The notes under the pieces are model-generated. The model was not told where the DNA came from. It did not search any database and was given only the letters and a program-made list of their open reading frames with translations. Below are positions 8,809-54,254 of a stretch of DNA of 64,000 nt, one piece after another. The first letter of the stretch is position 1. Every line of letters begins with the position of its first letter. A program made the position numbers and the translations under genes. This DNA is from an uncultured Gammaproteobacteria bacterium. GTDB taxonomy: Bacteria; Patescibacteriota; Patescibacteriia; UBA9934; CAMTUG01. The stretch spans positions 10,155 to 74,154 of the forward strand of contig CAZPQJ010000001.1 in the NCBI GenBank assembly GCA_964588955.1. Reading direction: 5' to 3'.

Positions 8809-10548
8809 CTATTCCGCCACGCGGAAGACTTCGTCGACAGAAGTTACCCCGTCGATGGCTTTTAACAAACCATCTTGAACCATCGTCACCATCCCTTGTT
8901 TTAAGGCGATGTCGCGCATTTGATATTCCGAAACGTTGCCGGTGAGTACGGCTTGTTCCACGTCGGCGGCCATTTGTAGTAATTCATAGATGCCGACGCG
9001 GCCTTTGAATCCGCTATTGTTGCAGGCCTCACAGCCTTTGCCGCGATAAAATTTCATCGTTTCCAAGTTGACCACCTCGCCAGAGTTCGCCGGAATTTCT
9101 GACAAGAGTTTTTGCACACGAACAAGTACGTCAGGTTCAAGCGTAACTTCTTCTTTGCAGGCGGTGCAGATTTTGCGCACCAAGCGCTGGCCGATCATGG
9201 CGTTTAAGGCAGGTGCGAGCAAAAACGGCTTGACTCCCATGGAGAGGAAGCGGGGAATGGCTCCGGCGGCGTCGTTGGTATGGATCGTAGAGAGCATCAG
9301 GTGGCCGGTCAGCGAAGCTTGGATGGCGATCTCGGCCGTCTCTAGGTCGCGAATTTCTCCGACCATGACAATGTCTGGGTCTTGGCGGAGAATCGAACGC
9401 AATCCCTTGGCAAAGGTGTAATCTTTGGTGTGGTCAATCTGGCTTTGGTTGATCCCTTCCACTTTGTATTCAATTGGGTCTTCCAAAGTGATAATCTTCA
9501 CGTCTGGCGCGTTGAGTCGTTGGAGTACGGCGTAGAGCGTCGTCGTTTTACCAGATCCGGTTGGACCGGTGGTAATAATCATTCCATGGGGTTTCTCAAT
9601 TTCTTTGCGTAGTTTTTCAAACACGGGCGGTCGTAGTCCTAACTTTTCAAAATCCAATTTTACCGCCCCGGAGCGCAGTACGCGCATCACCACAGACTCG
9701 CCATAAGCTGTCGGCAGGGTAGAAGTACGCACGTCGATTTCTTCATCCTTCAAGTATATAGTAAAGCGCCCGTCTTGCGGTCGGTCGGTGATGTTGATTT
9801 TTAGTCCAGCGATCAATTTGATGCGGCTGACAATGCGCTTCCAGGATTCCGCGGGGAGCATGGCCACGTCTTGCAACAGGCCGTCGACGCGTAGACGGAA
9901 TTTGACTCCTTCTTCCTCGGCTTCAATATGCAAATCACTCGAATCGAGTTCCAAGGCAGCGGAAATCATCACGCTCAACACGTCAGTGGTTGAAGCACTC
10001 GTCAGCAATGTTTGCACGGCGGCAAAATCTTTGACCTGGCTGCGATAGCGCGTCATTTCTGCATCGGTAATTTTTACCCCTTTAATGACCTGCTTAATTT
10101 TTGGTAACGCGGCATACAGAGCTAAAGCTTTTTCTAAACTGTGTTCACTAATCGCGTAGACGGCGGCTGTTGCCTTATTGCGTTCTCCCAGCTGATAAAC
10201 AAGTTCGGTAACCGCCGGATCGTTGGGGGTAAGGGCGCCAACACGAATTTCTGTACCGCTAAAAAGAAAGGGAATGGCTTTGAGTGCCCGCGCTTGCTCT
10301 TCCGGCACCAGTGCCAGTGCTTCCGGGGAGACGGCATAGGAGGTGAGGTCCACATAACCGACCTGAAGTTGGGTGGCCAGATCTTTGGCGATTTTTTCCT
10401 TTTCCCCCGTTTGGATAGCGGTCATCTTTTGCTCAAACTTTTCGGTGGCGCTTGGCGGCGTCAACACAACCGGAGCGGCTTTTTTCGCCGGAACCGGAGC
10501 GGGTTGTTTTTTCAACAAGTCTTCAATGGAGGGGAGATCAGATGGCAC
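8809..10548 (-). CDS. pilB: type IV pilus / type II secretion assembly ATPase (GspE/PilB family)
   Basis: 579 aa; Walker A GPTGSGKTTTLYA; GspE-N-like N-terminal domain; C-terminal CxxC...CxxC zinc-binding motif. Confidence 0.9.
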   Translation of the reverse strand: MPSDLPSIEDLLKKQPAPVPAKKAAPVVLTPPSATEKFEQKMTAIQTGEKEKIAKDLATQLQVGYVDLTSYAVSPEALALVPEEQARALKAIPFLFSGTEIRVGALTPNDPAVTELVYQLGERNKATAAVYAISEHSLEKALALYAALPKIKQVIKGVKITDAEMTRYRSQVKDFAAVQTLLTSASTTDVLSVMISAALELDSSDLHIEAEEEGVKFRLRVDGLLQDVAMLPAESWKRIVSRIKLIAGLKINITDRPQDGRFTIYLKDEEIDVRTSTLPTAYGESVVMRVLRSGAVKLDFEKLGLRPPVFEKLRKEIEKPHGMIITTGPTGSGKTTTLYAVLQRLNAPDVKIITLEDPIEYKVEGINQSQIDHTKDYTFAKGLRSILRQDPDIVMVGEIRDLETAEIAIQASLTGHLMLSTIHTNDAAGAIPRFLSMGVKPFLLAPALNAMIGQRLVRKICTACKEEVTLEPDVLVRVQKLLSEIPANSGEVVNLETMKFYRGKGCEACNNSGFKGRVGIYELLQMAADVEQAVLTGNVSEYQMRDIALKQGMVTMVQDGLLKAIDGVTSVDEVFRVAE

Positions 10549-45577: not shown

Positions 45578-46036
45578 ATGGCTCAGACACAGCGCACCCT
45601 CATTTTAATCAAGCCAGACGCGCTCCAGCGCGATTTGGTCGGCGAGATCGTTCACCGTTTTGAGCGTAAAGGGCTCAAAATTGTTGCCATGAAAATGATT
45701 CAGCTTGGCGACGCGGTTTTGGACGTCCACTACGCTCATTTGGCCGATAAACCGTTCTTCCCAGGCTTGAAGGACTTCATGATGTCTTCACCAGTCATTG
45801 CTATGGTGCTGGAAGGTGTGGAGGCCGTTGGAGCTGTGCGCTTGATTTTGGGTCCCACCAAAGCCTACGAAGCCGATGCCGGATCGATTCGCGGCGACTT
45901 GGCCATTGCCGTGGCTTCCAACCTGGTGCACGCTTCCGATTCTGCGGAGTCGGCGGTAGCAGAAATTGATCGATTCTTCGCGCCAAACGAGCTGTTTGCC
46001 TACGAGAAAATCACCGACAAGTTGTTCAACGACTAA
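45578..46036 (+). CDS. ndk: nucleoside diphosphate kinase
   Basis: Start refined to MAQTQRTLILIKPDA; NDK active-site His region (VHASDS). Confidence 0.9.
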   Translation: MAQTQRTLILIKPDALQRDLVGEIVHRFERKGLKIVAMKMIQLGDAVLDVHYAHLADKPFFPGLKDFMMSSPVIAMVLEGVEAVGAVRLILGPTKAYEADAGSIRGDLAIAVASNLVHASDSAESAVAEIDRFFAPNELFAYEKITDKLFND

Positions 46037-46057
46037 TCGACATATCCACACGTCGAT

Positions 46058-46262
46058 TTGACGGTAAAATAGCGCGACCGTATCATAGACTCCGTTATGA
46101 AATCACAAGCCTGGCACACCTTTACGCTTACGACCCGCGCAATTGATTGCGTCGATTTTGCGCTTCCGTATGCGTTAGCGATGGCCAGGATGGGACACTA
46201 AGGTTTCTTAGATCAATTCCAACCGACCATCGCTCGAGAAGAGTGGTGGTCGGTTTCGTTTC
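46058..46262 (+). promoter_or_regulatory. promoter plus leader L0: TTGACG-17-TATCAT, 34-codon upstream ORF (46097..46201), hairpin plus T-rich tract
   Basis: ATGAAATCA start 10 nt after the -10; peptide MKSQAWHTFTLTTRAIDCVDFALPYALAMARMGH; hairpin CCGACCA...TGGTCGG at 46223..46253 followed by TTTCGTTTCG. Confidence 0.45.
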
Positions 46263-46323
46263 GTGGTCGGATTCTGTGGCGAAGGTTGTTGCCGTAGACT
46301 CCGCCCTCTAAACCCAGGGTGGA

Positions 46324-46530
46324 ATGGAGCTGTCGATGACGAATGGTGATCGCACCGCCCCGACGACGGGCACGAACTCCACTTTCCGCTGCGCCGCCCT
46401 GCGTAGTCTTTCCGATGTGATGTTGGGTGACCCGCCGACCCAGCCGCTGCCGGCGCTTCAGCCGCCGCTCGATCGACACATGGTCGGTGTCTGCTGCACC
46501 CCCAATCCGCCCAACCGGCACCGTCTCTAG
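46324..46530 (+). CDS. small high-GC hypothetical protein (sORF1), Pro-rich C-terminus
   Basis: 68 aa; GC3-rich; GGGTGGA just upstream of ATG; followed by a hairpin (46562..46590) homologous to the one after sORF2. Confidence 0.4.
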   Translation: MELSMTNGDRTAPTTGTNSTFRCAALRSLSDVMLGDPPTQPLPALQPPLDRHMVGVCCTPNPPNRHRL

Positions 46531-46665
46531 TCTCTGTTCTTTCCTTCGTTTTCTTCCCGCGCCGGCTCGTCGAGTTTCTCTCCGAGCCGGCCGACCACAC
46601 CTTTGCGACGTGTAACTGTGGATCGGAATCCTCCGATTCATTGAACCCACCGCAGAGGATTCCCC

Positions 46666-47139
46666 ATGCCGAAGTCTCAGCGCCGATACGACTCTCTCGT
46701 GTTTGTGGACGTCTCGTGGTGCGACCCGGACCGTCGCCGTGGACCGAACCGCCTGACCATTTCCCAGAAGGTCGCGGACGAGCTCGGTTTCAGCGCTGGG
46801 TGTACGGTCGTACTGCGTGTCTACACCAGCATGCCTACGAAGACCACTGTCATCCGTCCGTTCCCCGCCTACGATCTCCTGGGCTCATGCCAGGTTGTGG
46901 TCAAGGAACAGATCGATCGCCCGAGGCTTGCTGGGGAGCTTTTGTCCAAAGCCAAGGAACAGGGTGGTGTCATCGTTTCTGCCGTCAGGGTGCGAGACAA
47001 GGGTCGCATCATCTGCTACAGGCACAACGATCAGAAGTTGACGCGTTCCGGAATCAATTCCGTTTCCGTCAGTCGTGCCAACGCCGCCAACGTCGACGAA
47101 AACACGGACAGCTTCGTCCCCATCCCACAGACCGCCTAG
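46666..47139 (+). CDS. small high-GC hypothetical protein (sORF2), possibly with AbrB/SpoVT-like swapped-hairpin segments
   Basis: 157 aa; GAGGA RBS 8 nt upstream; GC3-rich; NRLTISQKVADELGFSAGCTVVLRV resembles a looped-hinge DNA-binding motif (weak, by eye); terminator hairpin at 47162..47192. Confidence 0.5.
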   Translation: MPKSQRRYDSLVFVDVSWCDPDRRRGPNRLTISQKVADELGFSAGCTVVLRVYTSMPTKTTVIRPFPAYDLLGSCQVVVKEQIDRPRLAGELLSKAKEQGGVIVSAVRVRDKGRIICYRHNDQKLTRSGINSVSVSRANAANVDENTDSFVPIPQTA

Positions 47140-47204
47140 TTCGCTCCTTCTTCTTCCTCGTGACTGGCTCGTGAGTTCTCTCCGAGCCAGTCCAGCCCCT
47201 TTTA

Positions 47205-47436
47205 TTGACAATTATTGACCAGTTTTGTATCCTCAACCCATCGCTATGAAATCAATTGCCTTGTACTTTAGCCTCGGCTTTAGCGGGTTTACTCCCGGGG
47301 CGGTTGATGTTGCATAGAAGCTAGATTCTTTGAACATCAGGCCGCCGCAAGGGCGGTTTTTTGGTTGCTGATTTGATCAAGACTTGTCCGAACAAGTCTT
47401 GCAGAGTCTACAACCTTCCGTGCCTCAGGGGTTCCC
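47205..47436 (+). promoter_or_regulatory. promoter plus leader L1 for ATP-grasp 1
   Basis: TTGACA(47205)-N4-TTGACC, 17-nt spacer, TATCCT(47228); uORF 47246..47317 (MKSIALYFSLGFSGFTPGAVDVA); hairpin CCGCC-GCAAG-GGCGG plus T6 (47343..47362); second perfect 9-bp-stem hairpin 47378..47401. Confidence 0.55.
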
Positions 47437-48711
47437 ATGAACGACGATCGCGACGCTGTCTCCTGTTCCGTCGTAGCTGCCAGCGCGTCGACTGCCACCG
47501 TGCGCAAGCCCGTCTGCTGGGCGCATCTGACCGGCGACGTCTGCGACTTCGACACCGGGCATGGTCCGATTCTCTCCGCCCTCTCGGTGCGAGCCCTCCC
47601 GCTCGCTCGCAAGGGCGACATCGTCATCCTGCCCGCGCCTGGCGAGATTCCGCAAGATCTCGGCTACCACCAGAGCTTCGCTCTCGGTCCTGACCCGTTC
47701 GACGTCCACTGGGCGGATCTCACCGGCCACGAGGAGGGGCGTGTCACCGAAGGTCTTCCGATCACGAAGGGAATGTGCATCGACGTCATGTCGGGCACCT
47801 CCCGCGACGTGCGCAAGATCGCCGAACATTACGGCGCTCGGGTCGTTGCTCCGGATCTCGATGTTTGTCGGAATGCCAATTCCAAGAGTTGGCAGCAGGA
47901 GCTCGTGATCAAGATCGGAGGAGTTCCGATCCCTCTCGGCGGTTCCGTTCTCAACGTTGAGGAGGCACGTCGAGTGGTCGATGAACTGCGCACCGCCGGC
48001 TACCCTGTCGTGCGCTTCAAGCCGAAGAACTCGGCCAGTGGCATCGGACAGGTAGTCATCGGCGGCAACTTCGAAAGCTACGGTGACCTCATGTACCCCG
48101 GCGTCGTGCAGGCGCAGATCAACGTTGTGTCCTGCCACAGCGTGCAATTCTTCGTGAACGCTCGGCACCTCGCCGAGTTGGTGCACGAAGGGCCGAAGGC
48201 TCAGGTCTTTGAGGTCATCGATCAGATTGTCGATGGCAACGGCGGCTACGAAGGCTCGGTCTATCCGTCGATGCTGATCGACGATGAGAAGAATCGTCTG
48301 CAGACCATGGCCTGGCGTATCGTCAGTCGTCTGGCCGTGGAAGGATTCAACGGTTACGGCTCGGTCGACTTCATGCGCGATACGAGCGGCAACTTCTGGT
48401 TCGCCGAGGTCAACGGCAGGAAGACCGCTACCTACTACGCGGCGATGATCTCCCGCCGGATCTTCGGCAAGGTCGTGCCGTTCGTCCTGCGTTCTTTCCG
48501 CTTCCCCAAGCACATGCCCTTCCCGGCCTTCGGGAAGCACATGGGTGCCTGGATGTTGCGCCCGGGATCGAGCGAGGGGTTCTTCCCCTTCGCCTACCTG
48601 CCGCGCTTCGGCTTCAGCTACGGCGTGACTTTCAGCCCTGATGCCGAGAAGGTTCGGCGTCTCGACGCCCAGGTTCGCCTCAATATGGCGCCGCTCACGC
48701 GTAGCGCCTGA
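47437..48711 (+). CDS. ATP-grasp superfamily ligase, paralog 1 (subfamily A)
   Basis: 424 aa; flexible-loop motif FKPKNSASGIGQVV (K-P-x-x-x-S-x-G-x-G) and FWFAEVNGRKTA (E-V-N-x-R); N-terminal pre-ATP-grasp-like region; ANSKSW motif shared with paralog 3; GC about 65%. Confidence 0.7.
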   Translation: MNDDRDAVSCSVVAASASTATVRKPVCWAHLTGDVCDFDTGHGPILSALSVRALPLARKGDIVILPAPGEIPQDLGYHQSFALGPDPFDVHWADLTGHEEGRVTEGLPITKGMCIDVMSGTSRDVRKIAEHYGARVVAPDLDVCRNANSKSWQQELVIKIGGVPIPLGGSVLNVEEARRVVDELRTAGYPVVRFKPKNSASGIGQVVIGGNFESYGDLMYPGVVQAQINVVSCHSVQFFVNARHLAELVHEGPKAQVFEVIDQIVDGNGGYEGSVYPSMLIDDEKNRLQTMAWRIVSRLAVEGFNGYGSVDFMRDTSGNFWFAEVNGRKTATYYAAMISRRIFGKVVPFVLRSFRFPKHMPFPAFGKHMGAWMLRPGSSEGFFPFAYLPRFGFSYGVTFSPDAEKVRRLDAQVRLNMAPLTRSA

Positions 48712-48763
48712 GCGCTACTTCAACCGCCGGCCGGGGTACACCCTCGGCCGGCATCATCTTTAT

Positions 48764-49025
48764 TTGACAACTCTTGATCTACTCTTTACGATAAGGATAA
48801 AGCTATGTCATCAATGAATTTCAGCATCGACGTTTCTGAATCGTTGTCTTCAACGCCAAAGGTTGTTGCCGGTTTGCTTTTGAACCTCGACCTTCTTCCT
48901 TAGGGTCGCCTGGTTCCTTGTTACATCATGGAGTTGGACGACCCGATTGAATGGGTCGTTTTTGTTTGTCTGTGCTGTTGACTAGGGGTCTGAATGATCA
49001 GATCTCTTGAAACAGCGGAGTCAAC
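48764..49025 (+). promoter_or_regulatory. promoter plus leader L2 for ATP-grasp 2
   Basis: TTGACA(48764)-N4-TTGATC, 17-nt spacer, TACGAT(48787); AAGGA RBS then uORF 48805..48903 (MSSMNFSIDVSESLSSTPKVVAGLLLNLDLLP); hairpin ACGACCC-GATTGAAT-GGGTCGT plus T5 (48939..48964); long-range stem GTTGACT...AGTCAAC abutting the start codon. Confidence 0.55.
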
Positions 49026-50357
49026 ATGAACCGTACCTGCCTGCTGCACTGCCTTAGCGAATACGGACACGACGCTCAAGGCAGCGTGACGACCTCGATC
49101 GATGGTGTAGGTCTCTATGCCGGCCGTGGACTGGTTGTTCCTGCGCAGCTCAAGATCGTGCCGGATCACCCGGTCCTTTCTGCCGCTTGCGACTACATGC
49201 GGCGTGTAGGGATCGGTCCCAAGCGTATCGTTCACGTCCCGAGCATGGGATCACTCTACGACGGGGTACGTGCCAGTTCTGAAGCACAGCGGGCGATCGT
49301 CGAGCACGTTGCTCAGGACGGAGACGTCGAGTTCTACATCCCTGGCCCGGCAGCATGGGCACTCTGTCACGAGCTCGGTGTTCCTCAGAGTCGGGTGCGC
49401 AATCAACGGCCGGAGCTCGCGCCCGAGACCGACAAGGTGGGGATGCGGCGTTTGGGCGAGCAGCTCGGTTTGCGTACCTGTTTTCCTTCGCACGCATTCT
49501 CGCGTGGCAAGGAGGAAACGATGCGTGTGGCTCGCACGCTGTTCGCTGAGGGTCATGCACGTATCGTCATCAAGCGGCCGGACTTGGCGAGCGGCGAAGG
49601 GCAGCTGGTGATCGGCTCGATTAACGATCTCTCGCAGCAGGAAGGCGTGGCCTTTCTCCATCGCTATGCCGTGGACGGCGTCGAGTTGGTGGTCGAAGCG
49701 TGGTGGGAAGGGGAGGATTTCTCCGCGGTCTTCGAAGTCGATTTCGACGAAGTTCGGCTCATGCACATGAGCGGCCAGTTCATGCGTTCTGCCGATGGCA
49801 AGACCCACATGGGCAACTTTCTCGGTAATCGGCCGAACCAAGTATTTCCCAGTGTCGGGTCCTGTTCTTGGCATAATCGTATGGAGGTGGCTTGCCGACA
49901 GATGATCAGCGTCTGGCAACAGCGTGGCTATCGCGGCAAGATCGGCTTCGACGGCAAGGTGCGTCCTCATGCGGGAGAGTTCGTTCTGCTCGAAGTCAAC
50001 GCGCGTCCGTCGGCGAGCATCTTCGCCCGCTACGTGCTGGAGCAGGTGCGCCGCAGCGATGATGAAGAGATCGGCGTCTCCATGCTGAGTGTCACGCCGC
50101 CGCGCGCTTTCTCGATTGAAGAGATGGTGGCACTTCTCGGAAGTGACGCCTACAATCCGAGTACTCGCCGCGGAGTGATCATCGGCAACCCTGTTCGGAT
50201 GGGCGACATGCGTCATCCCGAGACGCCGATCCATGTGGTCGCTGACTCCGTTTCTCAGTCGATCGAGACCGCGCTTACCATCAAGCGTCGTGTCGAAGGC
50301 GATCGTTTCGACCCGGTAACGGTCCCTGACTTCACCTCTTGGCAGATGGCCAGCTAG
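49026..50357 (+). CDS. ATP-grasp superfamily ligase, paralog 2 (subfamily B)
   Basis: 443 aa; IKRPDLASGEGQLVIG (K-R-P-x-x-x-S-G-x-G) and FVLLEVNARPSAS (E-V-N-x-R-P); clearly similar along its whole length to paralog 4. Confidence 0.75.
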   Translation: MNRTCLLHCLSEYGHDAQGSVTTSIDGVGLYAGRGLVVPAQLKIVPDHPVLSAACDYMRRVGIGPKRIVHVPSMGSLYDGVRASSEAQRAIVEHVAQDGDVEFYIPGPAAWALCHELGVPQSRVRNQRPELAPETDKVGMRRLGEQLGLRTCFPSHAFSRGKEETMRVARTLFAEGHARIVIKRPDLASGEGQLVIGSINDLSQQEGVAFLHRYAVDGVELVVEAWWEGEDFSAVFEVDFDEVRLMHMSGQFMRSADGKTHMGNFLGNRPNQVFPSVGSCSWHNRMEVACRQMISVWQQRGYRGKIGFDGKVRPHAGEFVLLEVNARPSASIFARYVLEQVRRSDDEEIGVSMLSVTPPRAFSIEEMVALLGSDAYNPSTRRGVIIGNPVRMGDMRHPETPIHVVADSVSQSIETALTIKRRVEGDRFDPVTVPDFTSWQMAS

Positions 50358-50410
50358 TTGTCTGCCTCCATTCTCTTACGAACCAGCCGTCGACACGGCT
50401 GGTTCTTGCG

Positions 50411-50626
50411 TTGACAGAGCGTGTTGATTGTGTTAAGTTTCTCTTGTTATGGAATGTATTGTCGCAAACAGCAACAGCTATTATTACGCTCTCGCCACCA
50501 CGAGGGTGCTGATGCGTTAACACATATTTGTGTCGATGCCGCCGCCCTCGGGCGGTTTTTTGTTGTGTGTTTTATGAAGAACGGAAGCGTTCTGTTCTTC
50601 TCAAACCCACAACGTTCGAGGTCAAC
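50411..50626 (+). promoter_or_regulatory. promoter plus leader L3 for ATP-grasp 3
   Basis: TTGACA(50411)-N7-TTGATT, 17-nt spacer, TAAGTT(50434); uORF 50449..50520 (MECIVANSNSYYYALATTRVLMR); hairpin CCGCCC-TCG-GGCGG plus T6 (50541..50561); second hairpin GAAGAAC..GTTCTTC (50576..50600). Confidence 0.55.
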
Positions 50627-51775
50627 ATGTCTGCGTTCTTTCACCTTACCGGTAATGACGTCGCTCTTCCGTCGAGCGACTACAAGGTTCTGCGCCACTA
50701 CGCTCTGCGTGCGCTTCTTCCCGCCGGAGCTGACGACACGGTCATTTTGCACGGTCTGCCGTACCCCACCGATCTGCTCCGCCTGTTCAATCGTCTAGAG
50801 ATCGGACCGCACCCTGATCGTGTCTTCACGCACCTGTCGCGAGCGCGTGGGACGACGCTGCAAACCTTCAGTGGTGCCGCGCCGCGGGTGTGGGCCCTTA
50901 GCGATCAATTCGGTTGCCGCCTCGACGCACCCTCGTTCGAGGTCTGCATCACTGCCAATAGCAAGTCCTGGTTCCAGCGTACCTTCGGTGATAACACGTT
51001 GGCTTCGTTGCCTCCGGGGGCCGTCTGTCGTTTCGCCGACGTACCGATGCGTGCTTCCGCTCTCATGCGTGAGCACGGTCGCGCGGTACGTCTCAAGGAT
51101 CCCCACTCCGCGAGCGGCATCAAGCAGATGGTCCTGCCGTTGGGATCAGACGTGTCTGCCCGCCTGCCGCATGGACGAATGGATCAACAGGTCGTCCTCC
51201 AAGTCGAACAGCATCGCGACGCTGACGCCAGTGTGCAAGGTCATGTTACGCGTGACGGGGAAGTCATCGTGGGACAGGTGACGGGTCAGCACATCAGCGG
51301 ACAGGGAAGTCATGGTGGCAACTTCTTTCCTTCTGGTTTGCCGGAATGGGCGGAAGTGGCCATGCGTGACTCCACGCGCGCGGTGGGCGAAGGACTCGTA
51401 CGTCTCGGCTACTTCGGTCCGTACTCGGTTGACTTCGTCATCGACTTTGAAGCTTGCCGCGTCTACGCCGTGGAGTGCAACGCCCGTGTGACCGCCCCGC
51501 AGTATCCAATCCGTGCCTTGCAGACCTGGTACGGAGAAGCCGAGCATAGGCCGTTCGATCTCTTCAGCGTGCGTGTGGCATCGGGTACGAGTGTCGACGC
51601 AGTCGCGAATGCGCTAAATGGCACGCTCTTCTCGCGCGTGCTCGGCATCGGAGTCGTGCCGTTCGTCGTTCTGCCTCAGTTCGGCCTTGTCGTCTGCACT
51701 GTCTTCGCCACGAGCGAAGCGCATCGCGACTACCTTTCGAGCGAAGTCAGACACCTGCTCTTGCCCCTGCGCTAA
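50627..51775 (+). CDS. ATP-grasp superfamily ligase, paralog 3 (subfamily A)
   Basis: Start refined to MSAFFHL (GTCAACATG context identical to paralog 2); RLKDPHSASGIKQMV loop and YAVECNARVTAPQ (E-C-N-x-R); ANSKSW motif shared with paralog 1. Confidence 0.65.
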   Translation: MSAFFHLTGNDVALPSSDYKVLRHYALRALLPAGADDTVILHGLPYPTDLLRLFNRLEIGPHPDRVFTHLSRARGTTLQTFSGAAPRVWALSDQFGCRLDAPSFEVCITANSKSWFQRTFGDNTLASLPPGAVCRFADVPMRASALMREHGRAVRLKDPHSASGIKQMVLPLGSDVSARLPHGRMDQQVVLQVEQHRDADASVQGHVTRDGEVIVGQVTGQHISGQGSHGGNFFPSGLPEWAEVAMRDSTRAVGEGLVRLGYFGPYSVDFVIDFEACRVYAVECNARVTAPQYPIRALQTWYGEAEHRPFDLFSVRVASGTSVDAVANALNGTLFSRVLGIGVVPFVVLPQFGLVVCTVFATSEAHRDYLSSEVRHLLLPLR

Positions 51776-51821
51776 GTTCTTCCATCGCGCCCTCTTCTCA
51801 GGGGGGCGCGATTTATCGTTC

Positions 51822-52035
51822 TTGACCACTTTCCAGTGGTGTGATAGTTTTTTCTTGTTATGCAGATCGCCTCGAACAATGCACGCCGCGCCGCCACGAG
51901 CTATTGCTTCGCTGCGATTATTATTGATCTCGTTATTGCCTAGGGCCGTGTTCTTTTGTTGAAACGACGAAAGAAGACGGCCCTGCGCAAGCGGGGTCAT
52001 TTTTGTTCCTTCACCCTCATGCATAGGGGAATGCC
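51822..52035 (+). promoter_or_regulatory. promoter plus leader L4 for ATP-grasp 4
   Basis: TTGACC(51822), 17-nt spacer, TAGTTT(51845) with the same TTTCTTGTTATG context as L3; uORF 51860..51943 (MQIASNNARRAATSYCFAAIIIDLVIA); 13-bp-stem hairpin 51942..51984 and T5 at 52001. Confidence 0.5.
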
Positions 52036-53382
52036 GTGAATCTGATCCATCTCTTCGACATGCACTGCTACCAAACCGGTGAAGCCTCAGCTGATGGCCG
52101 TCAGACCCTGGCGGGGATCGACGATCGCATCGGCGACTACGCCGCGCGTGCTCTTCTTCTGCCCGGCAAGGCAGCCATTGTGCCCAAAGATGTGCTCATC
52201 GACGCGAGTGTCGCAGACCTCCGCACCTGGGGAATCGGTCCCCAAGAGATCATTCAAGTGCCTGGTGATCGAGGACTGTACAGCGGCGTTCTCGACTGTT
52301 CGCGCACTACGGCGATTCTTCGTCATCACGTCAACCTGGGTGGCAAGATCCAGGTCTTCAATCCCACGGCGAGTTGCTGGTCCTTTTGCGAGCAGTTGGG
52401 GGTCCACCGAGGCGTCCTGCACAACCGTCCGGAAGATCTAACGGCACTGACCGACAAGATCGGCTTCCGTCGTCTGGCTGCGGAGCTTGGCCTGCGCCGA
52501 GCGTTTCCCGAACATCGCTTCGCGACGCAAGCGGAAGAAGTCCGTGCGGCGGCGCGCGAGCTGTTCCTTCTCGGCCATCGACAGGTGTTCATCAAGCGGC
52601 CGGACCTGGCGAGTGGAACGGGGATGATCAAGGTTGGCGCTCGCGGTCTTAACGGTCGCAAGCTGAATACCTTTCTGTCCCGTTACGCTGGAAGCGTGGA
52701 GTTGATCGTCGAAGCGGCCTGGGGACAGGAAGACTATTCGTTTGTCTTCGACGTAAACGAAACGTCGTGGACGCTCGAGTACGTTACCGGCCAGTTCATG
52801 GAAGCCGACCGTAAGACCCATGCCGGCAACTTCCTTGGAGCAACCCCGAAGGACTGTCTGCCTGCTGATTGGAATAAGATCAAGCGAGGGAAGTTCATCT
52901 GCACGGTTCTTGATTTCATGACGCCGATGATCGACCAGTTGCGTAAGCGCGGTTATCGCGGCAAACTCTGCGTAGATGTGCGCGGCAATCATCGTGGCGA
53001 AGCGCGTCTGCTCGAGCTCAATGCTCGCGCTTCCGCGAGCAACTTCCCGCACGCCGTGCTCGAACAGGTCCGCAATCATTATGGTCACAAAGAGCTCGGT
53101 GCTGTGATGCTCAACGTCTGGCTCCCGAACCAGGTAGAGCGCTACGAAGATCTGCGCGCCCTCATCGGTAACGACTTGTTCGATCCGACCACCGGTTTCG
53201 GAATCGTCCCTGGCAACATCTTGTGTGTGCGCCACCAACGCCCCAAGTTCAGCCCGGTAATGGTGCAACCGAGCGTGGCCGGCGCGGTCGCGGCGCTGCT
53301 CGCGTTCAAACAGCGCATCGAACGCCGGCGTCCGGATCTCATCTACCCCGATCACTTAGCGACCGTCATGGTCGCTAAGTAA
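52036..53382 (+). CDS. ATP-grasp superfamily ligase, paralog 4 (subfamily B), GTG start
   Basis: 448 aa; FIKRPDLASGTGMIKVG and ARLLELNARASAS; AGGGGA RBS 8 nt upstream of the GTG; terminator hairpin GTCGAAGC-TTCGTC-GCTTCGAC downstream. Confidence 0.75.
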   Translation: MNLIHLFDMHCYQTGEASADGRQTLAGIDDRIGDYAARALLLPGKAAIVPKDVLIDASVADLRTWGIGPQEIIQVPGDRGLYSGVLDCSRTTAILRHHVNLGGKIQVFNPTASCWSFCEQLGVHRGVLHNRPEDLTALTDKIGFRRLAAELGLRRAFPEHRFATQAEEVRAAARELFLLGHRQVFIKRPDLASGTGMIKVGARGLNGRKLNTFLSRYAGSVELIVEAAWGQEDYSFVFDVNETSWTLEYVTGQFMEADRKTHAGNFLGATPKDCLPADWNKIKRGKFICTVLDFMTPMIDQLRKRGYRGKLCVDVRGNHRGEARLLELNARASASNFPHAVLEQVRNHYGHKELGAVMLNVWLPNQVERYEDLRALIGNDLFDPTTGFGIVPGNILCVRHQRPKFSPVMVQPSVAGAVAALLAFKQRIERRRPDLIYPDHLATVMVAK

Positions 53383-53483
53383 CCCGTTCTCACTTCGCGG
53401 TCGAAGCTTCGTCGCTTCGACCCTCACCTGTCTTCGTAAGTTTCCTTGCGCATGCAGGTGAGAACTCGTATTATTCCTTCACT

Positions 53484-54254
53484 ATGAAAGTACTCCTCTT
53501 ACAGATTCGTCGCGATGTCATGAAAGAGCATGAACGCAAATGTGTTGTAGCTAAGTCCGGCTTGTCGGAACAAGAGATTGTTGCGTTCGACATCTTTGAG
53601 CGGTTGATCACTGCGGACGATTTGAATGGTTACGATGCCTTGGTTGTCGGGGGTAGTGGTGGATACTGCGTTTCTGAACGTGAGATTCCCGCCGAGATCG
53701 ATGCGATGGAGGGGGTTATTCGTGAAGCACGCCAACGCCGCATGCCTGTGCTCGGTATTTGTTTTGGGCATCATTTGATTGCTGAAGCGCTTGGCGGCGA
53801 AGTACGCCAGGATCGCGATCGTCAGGAAGTGGGAACTTTTGAAGTGGCGCAAACTGCGGAAGCAAAAGTTGATCCAATATTTTCGCACCTACCGGCAAGC
53901 TTTTTGGCACAGGAGGGACACAAAGATCATGTCACGAAATTGCCACCAGGTGCGGTGCATCTTCTCTCAACTCCCACCTCGCCGTTGCAAGCCTTCACCT
54001 TTCCCGGCGAGCCTATTTACAGCATGCAGTTGCATCCAGAGTTGTCGAAAGCAGATGTGTTCGAACGCCTCGATTTTTATCGTTCGTTGTATTTGAAATC
54101 GCAAATGGTCGAAGGGACAACAGATGTGGGTGCGGGGAGTACAGAATTTGACACGATTATGAGTGCTACTATGGACACGCCAGAGGCGGAAAAGATTTTG
54201 CATCTATTTTTTGAAGAAGTTGTTGATAACGGAAAACGTTATCCACACGCGTAG
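53484..54254 (+). CDS. class I glutamine amidotransferase-like protein (standalone GATase1)
   Basis: 256 aa; nucleophile elbow GICFGHHL (Cys), His in MQLHPE, overall GATase1 pattern; GC about 50% (host-like). Confidence 0.7.
   Translation: MKVLLLQIRRDVMKEHERKCVVAKSGLSEQEIVAFDIFERLITADDLNGYDALVVGGSGGYCVSEREIPAEIDAMEGVIREARQRRMPVLGICFGHHLIAEALGGEVRQDRDRQEVGTFEVAQTAEAKVDPIFSHLPASFLAQEGHKDHVTKLPPGAVHLLSTPTSPLQAFTFPGEPIYSMQLHPELSKADVFERLDFYRSLYLKSQMVEGTTDVGAGSTEFDTIMSATMDTPEAEKILHLFFEEVVDNGKRYPHA

Follow-up and report, generated by a model that had tools for sequence, protein, structure and literature searches.

What do five short leaders, termed L0 to L4, contribute to the genes that they precede in a 7.4-kb island (~46.0-53.4 kb) of contig CAZPQJ010000001.1 from an uncultured Patescibacteria bacterium? 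The stretch analysed, referred to here as the window, comprises 64,000 nucleotides (nt), and every leader in the island holds a short upstream open reading frame (uORF). An initial annotation had noticed that these uORFs carry runs of single amino acids and had suggested that each might attenuate an ATP-grasp ligase gene in an amino-acid-specific manner. All five uORFs are present with the runs that were described; the placement before a ligase holds for L1-L4 and fails for L0, which is followed by an open reading frame (ORF) of 68 amino acids (aa) and then by one of 157 aa. We consider it likely that L0-L4 are ribosome-mediated (leader-peptide) transcription attenuators, a reading carried by in silico evidence, i.e. 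sequence anatomy, conservation, covariation and fold competition, and we infer from it that the uORFs are translated, where transcription starts, that the units respond to starvation and which substrates the ligases prefer.

In the proposed mechanism, a sigma70-type promoter would start an RNA whose first few nucleotides already hold the uORF ATG, and initiation would be leaderless-like, without a Shine-Dalgarno (SD) sequence. At the uORF stop or immediately ahead of it, a segment would pair with the 5' arm of the terminator to give an antiterminator. A ribosome translating the uORF to its end would cover that segment, the terminator and its U-run would form and the gene would be off; a ribosome that stalls on the clustered identical codons, which lie just upstream of the switch point, would allow the antiterminator, and with it read-through and expression. 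With no ribosome loaded, most leaders would also be on. Each unit would then report the charging level of a different tRNA, the sensed amino acids being Leu for L2, Tyr for L3, Ile for L4, probably Phe for the weakened L1 and possibly Thr for L0. That L2, L3 and L4 are specific for Leu, Tyr and Ile, respectively, we hold with somewhat less confidence than attenuation as such; for L1 the sensing of Phe is plausible, and for L0, a weak leader with no ligase downstream, the sensing of Thr is doubtful. The initial annotation had allowed for induction either by starvation for an amino acid or by its abundance. Since full translation gives the off state and stalling the on state, the leader geometry agrees with the former only.

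The same order of parts recurs through the island, viz. a sigma70-like promoter, a short ATG ORF, one or two hairpins with a T-run after the last, a further hairpin, an SD, the gene and a terminator (Table 1). The uORFs of the window have 23-34 codons, and a promoter of the form TTGACx-N17-TAnnnT ends 9-12 nt before each ATG. Among 20 leaders tabulated from seven genomes, the five of the window and 15 more from relatives, 19 have 9-13 nt between the -10 element and the ATG, with a T at position -1, the exception being L093_c (19 nt); a twenty-first leader, L104, has 21 nt and was left out of the 20-leader statistics. With this spacing and no SD, initiation at the uORFs looks leaderless, as judged from predicted start sites. 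An AAGGA motif previously proposed as the SD of L2 does exist, but it lies directly against the -10 element and is probably outside the transcript. When the composite module was defined as a -35 element with at least 5/6 matches, TAnnnT, an ATG 8-14 nt further on, an ORF of 10-45 codons and a hairpin with a T-run, it occurred exactly five times on both strands of the 64 kb, and these occurrences are L0-L4.

The runs were scored as the best single-amino-acid window, background-weighted by the amino-acid frequencies of the window, against 3000 dinucleotide shuffles per uORF; a plain count of the most frequent residue in eight codons was too blunt (YYY p=0.56), and the background-weighted score was used instead. 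The Leu run of L2 (6/8) gave p=0.02 and the YYY of L3 p=0.005, and the five window runs together gave a Fisher's combined p of 7e-4. The runs by themselves are suggestive, not compelling, as they stand only modestly above chance. By the same test, the Phe runs of five relatives reached p=0.002-0.025, and the score pooled over the 20 leaders reached Fisher's p=3e-11, a figure inflated by homology. The notion that Phe and Ile runs are mere U-tracts was ruled out: five Leu codons are used, YYY lacks U-richness, and the ATG frame gives the best scores for the Phe and Leu runs.

Between uORF and gene, all five window units have a GC hairpin with a folding free energy (dG) of -12 to -24 and then a T-run, the U-run of L0 being interrupted (TTTCGTTTCG); from hairpin and U-run to the SD there are 70-90 nt in L1-L3 and ~30 nt in L4. 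Every leader contains a segment complementary to the terminator 5' arm, located -27 to +11 nt from the first base of the stop codon and usually almost identical to the terminator 3' arm. This antiterminator pairing beats dinucleotide shuffles in 14 of the 20 leaders (p<0.05; Fisher's combined p=4e-14). Relative to where the antiterminator arm begins, the stop of the ATG frame is at -2 to +28 nt in 20/20 leaders, compared with 4/40 for the other two frames. Conservation is poor outside the arms, and paralogous leaders share 50% column identity. A search of Rfam returned no match at the gathering score in the 64 kb, and no T-box, riboswitch or leader family at E<=10 in 46000-52100.

The comparison of leaders across genomes shows what has been kept. 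The initial annotation had proposed, as a check, that homologous leaders be examined for conservation of the amino-acid runs rather than of the nucleotides; in orthologous leaders the reading frame, the stop position and the run, and not RNA structure alone, are retained while nucleotides drift, and runs of the III/II, Leu-rich and FFF type persist. The III run of L4 is conserved in three orthologues. Leu runs are spelled with CTT, CTC, CTA, CTG and TTG, so that the repeated thing is the amino acid and not the nucleotides. In an alignment of five Ile and Leu leaders, A7 (69% column identity), the two types are clearly homologous and differ exactly at the run codons (ATT ATT ATT / ATT versus TTG CTT TTG / CTT), gaps are of 3 or 6 nt in the coding part and of 1, 4 or 6 nt in the non-coding part, and there are synonymous alternations (GAT/GAC, GTT/GTC, GCC/GCG) as well as exchanges among the stops TAG, TAA and TGA. 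Such a pattern of frame, gaps and synonymous change is what selection on a translated, amino-acid-specific run would predict. Covariation in A7 concerns both of the competing structures. Columns 36-41 pair with 72-77 (antiterminator) and columns 73-78 with 91-96 (terminator) in 5/5 sequences; each helix has two compensatory pairs, and columns 74 and 77 of the shared 5' arm change together with both partners, one partner being the third base of the stop codon. In controls the observed score was reached by 4 and 8 of 500 shuffles, and slid registers were at most 59% paired. Two further compensatory pairs occur in the L091/L093 terminator.

Strong Phe leaders are found in five related islands, four of them before ATP-grasp genes of the short subfamily described below; that of L101 precedes a 59-aa ORF and a 361-aa protein, for which BLAST gave no match to the ATP-grasps. 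L1 and the Phe leader of L099 both have 23 codons and have F8, L10, G14, F15 and a GG(C/T)GGTT arm in common. L1 looks like a weakened, degenerate Phe leader, the backing for which is the strong Phe leaders of its relatives. Leaders of greater length (36-42 aa), the cores of which mix Ile, Val, Leu and Met, precede other long-subfamily genes (L091_c, L093_c, L099_b) and a 407-aa gene (L104). Such mixed Ile/Val/Leu leaders resemble the ilvL peptide of E. coli.

Whether ribosome position selects the fold was modelled by folding each leader with a ribosome footprint (-15 to +12 nt, 28 nt in all) masked around each A-site codon in turn. L3 has the classical 1:2 / 2:3 / 3:4 layout, with region 1 directly after YYY, and at equilibrium the probability of its terminator is 0.00-0.09 only when the A site is at S10-Y11-Y12-Y13-A14, compared with 0.50-0.98 elsewhere and 0.62 without a ribosome. 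A ribosome on P7-F10 of L091_b and L093_b abolishes the terminator, which is retained from F13 onward; in L2 it is lost at G23-L25 and retained from L30, and in L4 and L003_c it forms only when the ribosome is on the last 2-3 codons or the stop. In a kinetic model, where the pre-terminator transcript is folded up to the terminator loop with the ribosome masked, the probability that the terminator 5' arm is sequestered stays at ~0.8-0.98 as long as the ribosome has not passed the run, and falls to 0.2-0.6 afterwards. The switch point lies at most 4 codons from the end of the run in 18 of the 20 leaders (P=8e-7), or in 8/10 when one leader is taken per homology group (P=0.004), the exceptions being L0 (12 codons) and L091_a (7 codons). 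In these models the runs stand just upstream of the point at which the ribosome begins to occlude the antiterminator. In L101 and L102_a a transcript with no ribosome on it folds into the terminator, and a stall at or before the Phe run, but not one beyond it, is needed to release the antiterminator, which in this model is full four-region logic; the other leaders are antiterminated by default in the kinetic model.

Table 1. Positions in the window of the leaders and genes of the island, followed by the competing arms of selected leaders and the leader peptides of the window and of related islands (peptides are given up to the stop codon; dG, folding free energy).
Feature	Position	Strand	Description	dG
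L0 promoter-like site	46058-46086	+	TTGACG-17-TATCAT, ends 10 nt 5' of ATG	
L0 uORF	46097-46201	+	34 codons, MKSQAWHTFTLTTRAIDCVDFALPYALAMARMGH; TFTLTT at codons 8-13 (46118-46135), Thr 4/6	
L0 candidate antiterminator 5' arm	46176-46193	+	TAGCGATGGCCAGGATGG, pairs with terminator 5' arm	-16.7 (shuffles -10.7, p=0.01)
L0 terminator	46223-46263	+	CCGACCATCGCTC...GAGTGGTGGTCGG + TTTCGTTTCG	-23.6
68-aa ORF	46324-46530	+	between L0 and the 157-aa ORF	
157-aa ORF	46666-47139	+	not ATP-grasp; downstream of L0	
L1 promoter-like site	47205-47233	+	TTGACA-17-TATCCT	
L1 uORF	47246-47317	+	23 codons, MKSIALYFSLGFSGFTPGAVDVA; Phe at codons 8, 12, 15	
L1 antiterminator 5' arm	47298-47309	+	GGGCGGTTGATG, near copy of terminator 3' arm GGGCGGTTT	
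L1 terminator	47339-47366	+	AGGCCGCCGCAAGGGCGGTTT + T-run	
ATP-grasp paralog, 424 aa	47437-48711	+	short subfamily; downstream of L1	
L2 promoter-like site	48764-48792	+	TTGACA-17-TACGAT	
L2 uORF	48805-48903	+	32 codons, ends GLLLNLDLLP; LLLNLDLL at codons 24-31 (48874-48897), Leu 6/8	
L2 antiterminator 5' arm	48902-48911	+	AGGGTCGCCT, overlaps stop codon, identical to terminator 3' arm GGGTCG	
L2 terminator	48936-48971	+	GGACGACCC...GGGTCGTTT + TTGTTTG	
ATP-grasp paralog, 443 aa	49026-50357	+	long subfamily; AlphaFold2 model like PGM1/BesA/LdmS-type ligases; downstream of L2	
L3 promoter-like site	50411-50439	+	TTGACA-17-TAAGTT, ends 9 nt 5' of ATG	
L3 uORF	50449-50520	+	23 codons, ends SYYYALATTRVLMR; YYY = TAT TAT TAC at 50479-50487	
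L3 region 1	50488-50494	+	GCTCTCG	
L3 region 2	50501-50508	+	CGAGGGTG	
L3 region 3	50543-50550	+	CGCCCTCG	
L3 terminator	50538-50566	+	GCCGCCGCCCTCGGGCGGT + TTTTTTG	
ATP-grasp paralog, 382 aa	50627-51775	+	short subfamily; downstream of L3	
L4 promoter-like site	51822-51850	+	TTGACC-17-TAGTTT, ends 9 nt 5' of ATG	
L4 uORF	51860-51943	+	27 codons, ends AAIIIDLVIA; III = ATT x3 at 51917-51925, plus I26	
L4 antiterminator 5' arm	51940-51950	+	CTAGGGCCGTG, includes stop codon, pairs with 51976-51986	-17.8 (p=0.004)
L4 terminator	51979-52007	+	GGCCCTGCGCAAGCGGGGTC + ATTTTTG	
ATP-grasp paralog, 448 aa	52036-53382	+	long subfamily; downstream of L4	
Class-I glutamine amidotransferase / peptidase-C26-like gene	53484-54254	+	closes the island, without attenuator	
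L2 arms			segment GGGTCG; terminator 5' CGACCC; terminator 3' GGGTCG	
L003_c arms			segment GAGGCCG; terminator 5' CGGCCTC; terminator 3' GAGGTCG	
L091_b arms			segment GGGCGGTT; terminator 5' AACCGCCC; terminator 3' GCGGTTG	
Ile-type peptide, window L4			MQIASNNARRAATSYCFAAIIIDLVIA, ends AAIIIDLVIA	
Ile-type peptide, L003			MAKMYKNTSTIINLTIA, ends TSTIINLTIA	
Ile-type peptide, L098			MKTIGNTYTIIILDLVLA, ends YTIIILDLVLA	
Leu-type peptide, window L2			...VVAGLLLNLDLLP, ends GLLLNLDLLP	
Leu-type peptide, L003			MNCLTHHSTSLSLNLLLT, ends SLSLNLLLT	
Leu-type peptide, L099			MHRDFRSNNLLGLLSLLDLPVVRFGRL, segment NLLGLLSLLDLP, LLGLLSLLDLP	
Phe-type peptide, L091			MTRRSLPFFFGGFPFFQKAGGFVMGQG, PFFFGGFPFF	
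Phe-type peptide, L093			MNRRHTPFFFGGFCFFKKVGGFVVNSR, PFFFGGFCFF	
Phe-type peptide, L099			MTTQNFIFPLFTFGFPQAGWFRR, FIFPLFTFGF	
Phe-type peptide, L102			MVYASRSNQFFGFFFCHPRQPR, FFGFFF	
Phe-type peptide, L101			MTYSHTATFFFFMTTVVQS, FFFF	

Other explanations of the same elements have to be weighed. The leaders could be translation-coupled terminators that sense general translation capacity, the runs being by-products of U-rich or hydrophobic sequence and of constraints on RNA structure. Default antitermination without a ribosome in most leaders would suit this, as would the finding that a stall anywhere before the last few codons antiterminates, the weak run statistics of L0, L1 and L4, and the mixed Ile/Val/Leu/Met composition of the 36-42-aa leaders (L091_c, L093_c, L099_b, L104). 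Conceivable for the default-on designs, it is nevertheless unlikely in our view, because same-residue runs persist in orthologues despite codon changes and in-frame indels, homologous Ile and Leu leaders differ precisely at the run codons (ATT versus CTT/TTG), YYY is neither U-rich nor driven by hydrophobicity, the run ends within 4 codons of the switch point in 18/20 leaders, and the four-region design of L101 and L102_a yields the terminator when no ribosome is present. Less probable again is that the ORFs are untranslated and their ATG frames fortuitous, the leaders being pure RNA elements such as a riboswitch, a tRNA-sensing leader or small RNAs. The uORFs have no SD, the long antiterminator hairpin with its internal stem is conserved, and a terminated unit would release a transcript of ~100-170 nt, all of which could be expected of such an element; yet even at E<=10 Rfam offers no T-box, riboswitch or known leader, and an untranslated RNA leaves unexplained the fixed distance of the ATG from the -10 element (19/20 leaders), the locking of the ATG-frame stop to the antiterminator arm (20/20 versus 4/40 in other frames) and the coding-part gaps in multiples of three. 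The 50% column identity of paralogous leaders outside the arms is also unlike a ligand-binding aptamer, and we judge this explanation to be very improbable.

The position of the small ORFs beside ligase genes raises another possibility, i.e. that they encode ribosomal precursor peptides for the adjacent PGM1-like enzymes, in the manner of pheganomycin or of RiPPs (peptides made on the ribosome and altered after translation), with the hairpin setting the stoichiometry of peptide to enzyme. PGM1 ligates a ribosomal peptide, and both PGM1 and a Streptomyces 'ATP-grasp peptide ligase' are among the nearest solved relatives; a small ORF adjoins each enzyme, C-terminal residues are conserved between orthologues, and some of the small ORFs have already been annotated by gene callers. 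That conserved C-terminal part, however, falls on the antiterminator arm of the RNA, and covariation links the third stop-codon base to the terminator arm. Neither a leader nor a recognition motif is common to the peptides, whose N-terminal halves are unrelated; they range in length from 17 to 42 aa and are dominated by runs of single hydrophobic or aromatic residues, with no graspetide cores of Ser/Thr/Lys plus Asp/Glu. Moreover, a GCS2 gene, the 374-aa ORF of L091 and the window's 157-aa ORF are preceded by uORFs of the same kind, and several orthologous ligases stand without any small ORF, so that the precursor explanation seems to us quite unlikely.

Attenuation by leader peptides has its own difficulties, and the following observations weigh against it or against its finer claims. 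No convincing SD is present upstream of the five window uORFs. Taken singly, the runs of L0 (Thr 4/6, p=0.07), L1 (Phe 3/8, p=0.37) and L4 (III, p=0.08) are not significant, and as many of the 20 leaders are homologous, pooled P-values overstate their independence. Neither the Tyr leader (L3) nor the Thr leader (L0) has an orthologue among the leaders recovered. In L0, L091_c and L093_c the terminator wins at every ribosome position at equilibrium, because these terminators are much more stable, and kinetic control must be assumed for them; even in the kinetic model the switch point of L0 shows no link to the Thr run, which lies 12 codons earlier. Antitermination without a ribosome in most leaders means that the element could report general translation status no less than a specific amino acid. 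Several orthologous ligases have no uORF leader (those of 392 and 410 aa in L003, 402 aa in L006 and 403 aa in L101, and those of L092 and L103), and leader type does not match enzyme clade cleanly in a rough neighbour-joining tree; for both of these reasons, the idea that a leader names the amino acid ligated by its own paralog can be put forward only conditionally. Finally, induction of a ligase by shortage of the very amino acid that it consumes is physiologically paradoxical.

The island lies between ndk (45578-46036) and a gene for a class-I glutamine amidotransferase (GATase) / peptidase-C26-like protein. Its G+C content (46000-53400) is 57-60%, compared with ~51% in the flanks and 47-52% in the leaders themselves, and the neighbouring ComEC gene has 67% and 61% identity to those of two Patescibacteria / Parcubacteria metagenome-assembled genomes, which places the window in that group. 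The genes after L1-L4 are four divergent ATP-grasp paralogs of 424, 443, 382 and 448 aa, with 19-28% identity to the first. The 68-aa and 157-aa ORFs after L0 have no Pfam or NCBIfam match, and a decayed ATP-grasp gene was sought between L0 and the 157-aa ORF and none was found; the GC-rich stretch of ~400 nt from the L0 terminator to the 157-aa gene (46264-46665) holds the putatively coding 68-aa ORF. A homologue of the 157-aa protein with 87% identity, P0155, is present in a second sample on a 3.3-kb Logan contig, seemingly with ndk, and an L0 orthologue probably exists on that contig. At the end of the island, the GATase/C26-like gene has a -35 TTGCGC and a -10 TATTAT that ends 8 nt before its ATG (53449-53486), with no SD, and its mRNA looks leaderless; this spacing suggests SD-independent initiation in this organism and makes uORF initiation without an SD more plausible.

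Two further kinds of hairpin accompany the genes. Between the attenuator terminator and the SD of the main gene, L0-L3 have an extra stable hairpin (46273-46323, 47378-47401, 48984-49007 and 50576-50600; region dG -20 to -27 kcal/mol), and in L4 a weaker stem, CCCT...AGGG (52014-52028), overlaps the SD. These could serve as 5' stabilisers after read-through or as a second, translational control. Directly after the stops of island genes (46531-46600, 47140-47200, and after 51775 and 53382) there is a pyrimidine-rich motif (GTTCTTYCYTTC...) followed by a GC hairpin, which is also seen in L003, L097, L098 and L099. The copies after the 68-aa and 157-aa ORFs are near duplicates (..CGGCTCGTCGAGTTTCTCTCCGAGCCGG.. 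versus ..TGGCTCGTGAGTTCTCTCCGAGCCAG..), pointing to duplication of a gene end or to a 3' element in common.

Seven related islands were recovered (L003/L004/L088, L006/L007, L091/L094/L095, L093, L099/L100, L101 and L102), most of which have a common synteny of UDP-glucose dehydrogenase, ComEC, ndk, ligases and GATase; L098 and L104 are partial, L098 being a leader from a 2-kb contig without context. The GATase/C26 gene closes the island in four of the seven (L003, L091, L093 and L099). The island follows ndk in most genomes that have it, L099 being an exception, its set of genes differing greatly from one to another, and judged by this layout it behaves like a hypervariable or horizontally exchanged locus. 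No ligases were found among 80 Patescibacteria loci gathered via the neighbouring ComEC gene, and a scan of one genome per GTDB species returned nothing for the long-subfamily ATP-grasp; judged by these searches, the island is confined to a narrow lineage. uORF leaders are also found before genes that do not encode ATP-grasps, viz. GCS2 in L102, the 374-aa ORF in L091 and the 157-aa ORF in the window. L102 (6216-11215) adds the GCS2-family ligase behind its uORF leader (MSIIVTQRLTQNAGALILGITLLAEGRFLG), a gamma-glutamyltranspeptidase and an M20 peptidase, L093 (8233-8988) adds a LysE-type exporter, and L099 (6452-6923) has an inserted HicAB toxin-antitoxin pair. Comparison of five ~290-aa genes of the L006 island as paralogs gave a single weak pair only.

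The ligase clade nearest to the 424-aa protein of the window (410 and 407 aa; L003 5160-5366, L103 750-948) has a conserved leader of another appearance, GGTTTGAGTGTTGCRTAAATCGATT...GAGCCGC, with a hairpin and a T-run, in which neither a promoter-like site nor a conserved ATG uORF is present; this is a different leader, possibly read through from ndk. In L003 (9673-9721) the public call of a 452-aa ATP-grasp starts at an ATG inside the attenuator terminator hairpin, and homology and an SD favour the ATG at 9721 (436 aa). Two of the longer leader peptides have been annotated by gene callers as hypothetical proteins (L095 6291-6410 and L104 2210-2338; 39 and 42 aa); as the N-terminus is polar, the core rich in Ile/Val/Leu and the tail short, they could pass for small membrane proteins.

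The regulated enzymes fall into two subfamilies, short (382-424 aa) and long (436-458 aa), with invariant Lys, Asn and Arg columns. The family is rare, with a single homologue above the word-search threshold; an exhaustive profile search gave 34 relatives at E<1e-30 and ~2,250 at E<1e-3, and an alignment of 29 sequences was too divergent for pattern scanning and gave nothing new in a word-indexed protein search. Against the PDB, the family profile matched the Streptomyces 'ATP-grasp peptide ligase' (8ynd, 3e-15), PGM1 (3wvq, 5e-15), LdmS (7r8p, 4e-14) and BesA (8yi6, 1e-13), all ranked ahead of purine and biotin-carboxylase enzymes. The AlphaFold2 model of the 443-aa protein has a predicted local distance difference test score (pLDDT) of 93, and its top Foldseek hits are 8ynd, 3wvq, 8yi6 and 7r8q (template-modelling score 0.63-0.71), with a sequence identity to LdmS of only about 11-14% in the structural alignment. 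By these profile and structure matches, the genes after L1-L4 encode carboxylate-amine (amino-acid or peptide) ligases of the PGM1/BesA/LdmS type.

What such ligases would do is hinted at by the genes of related islands (GATase/C26, GCS2, gamma-glutamyltranspeptidase, M20 peptidase and LysE exporter), which point to gamma-glutamyl or dipeptide turnover, and a role in amino-acid capture and release may be imagined. A tentative extension, which we think possible though on balance improbable, is that the island forms a 'ribulon' whose L-amino-acid (or gamma-glutamyl/dipeptide) ligases are each specific for an amino acid and induced by starvation, in a symbiotic, auxotrophic member of the Patescibacteria. 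Every ligase paralog would stand behind a leaderless leader-peptide attenuator of its own, the leader naming the amino acid that the adjacent enzyme captures or salvages. The attenuators would have been re-tuned codon by codon after gene duplication, e.g. from ATT ATT ATT to TTG CTT TTG, and the ligases together with the C26-type amidotransferase/hydrolase (in L102 with gamma-glutamyltranspeptidase, GCS2 and the M20 peptidase) would make up an ATP-driven cycle of amino-acid trapping and release. If true, this would also explain the induction of LdmS by shortage of the amino acid that it consumes.

How, then, does this array compare with known systems? Patescibacteria, i.e. bacteria of the candidate phyla radiation, as a rule lack most amino-acid biosynthesis, and little is known of how they sense and manage amino acids. 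Full-text searches of the literature library that was used returned no paper that joins Patescibacteria or L-amino-acid ligases with leader-peptide attenuation. The array is of interest for several reasons: its sequence may hint directly at what each member of an ATP-grasp family with ~2,250 relatives uses as substrate, it would be a natural case of attenuator specificity rewritten after gene duplication, and its units, which are compact (~150-190 nt), self-contained and SD-independent, could be used as amino-acid-specific sensors.

Among systems with a similar read-out, T-box leaders likewise combine amino-acid-specific monitoring of tRNA charging (here predicted) with a choice between terminator and antiterminator upstream of paralogous amino-acid-handling genes; unlike them, L0-L4 have no specifier loop, T-box sequence or Rfam match, and sensing would pass through the translating ribosome. 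The PGM1/PGM2 pheganomycin and graspetide systems share the adjacency of a small ORF to a ligase of PGM1-like fold, but here there is no conserved recognition or core motif, the conserved part is an RNA arm and the uORFs also precede unrelated genes. The mycobacterial 'Cys ribulon' consists of leaderless poly-Cys short ORF attenuators that act by unmasking a downstream ribosome-binding site (bioRxiv 10.1101/834739). In common with that system are an unannotated short ORF at or near the (here predicted) 5' end of the mRNA, a single-residue run as the sensor and the presence of several loci; in contrast to it, the present units have intrinsic terminators with U-runs in place of ribosome-binding-site unmasking, and neighbouring units are tuned to different amino acids and not to Cys alone.

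For the ligases, the closest parallel is the hmrA-ldmS operon of Staphylococcus, in which LdmS (PDB 7R8P/7R8Q) is an L-Asp-L-Met ligase (PMC9486568). The operon is under S-box, CymR or CodY control and is derepressed on shortage of Met or S-adenosylmethionine even though LdmS consumes Met, which its authors called paradoxical (PMC9486568). LdmS is among the closest solved relatives of the ligases described here, the same apparent paradox arises in both, and an M20 peptidase is the partner there and in the L102 island; the two differ in that a leader peptide takes the place of riboswitch and protein repressors, and an array of paralogs that of a single enzyme. As a precedent for induction of a ligase on amino-acid shortage, LdmS is by analogy suggestive only, and the tandem array would be a second, independent case of this link.

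The nearest relatives in mechanism are the enterobacterial attenuators. Like trpL, pheL, leuL, thrL, ilvL and hisL, the leaders consist of a short ORF with clustered codons for the sensed amino acid, followed by an intrinsic terminator; the antiterminator shares the terminator 5' arm, the uORF stop is placed such that a ribosome at the end of the ORF blocks the antiterminator, and L3, L101 and L102_a have the full 1:2 / 2:3 / 3:4 layout. They depart from those attenuators in having no SD and a leaderless-looking initiation, and in that most units have only two competing hairpins and would therefore be on by default without translation. What is controlled is also different, namely ATP-grasp ligases (plus GCS2 and other proteins) and not biosynthetic operons, in a Patescibacteria host, by several differently tuned units in tandem that match no Rfam leader family. 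Read from its predicted parts, the logic of L0-L4 is that of classical leader-peptide attenuation, from which the array would differ in start-site architecture, in the default-on two-hairpin layout, in the kind of gene that is regulated, in phylum and in the tandem arrangement of paralogous units.

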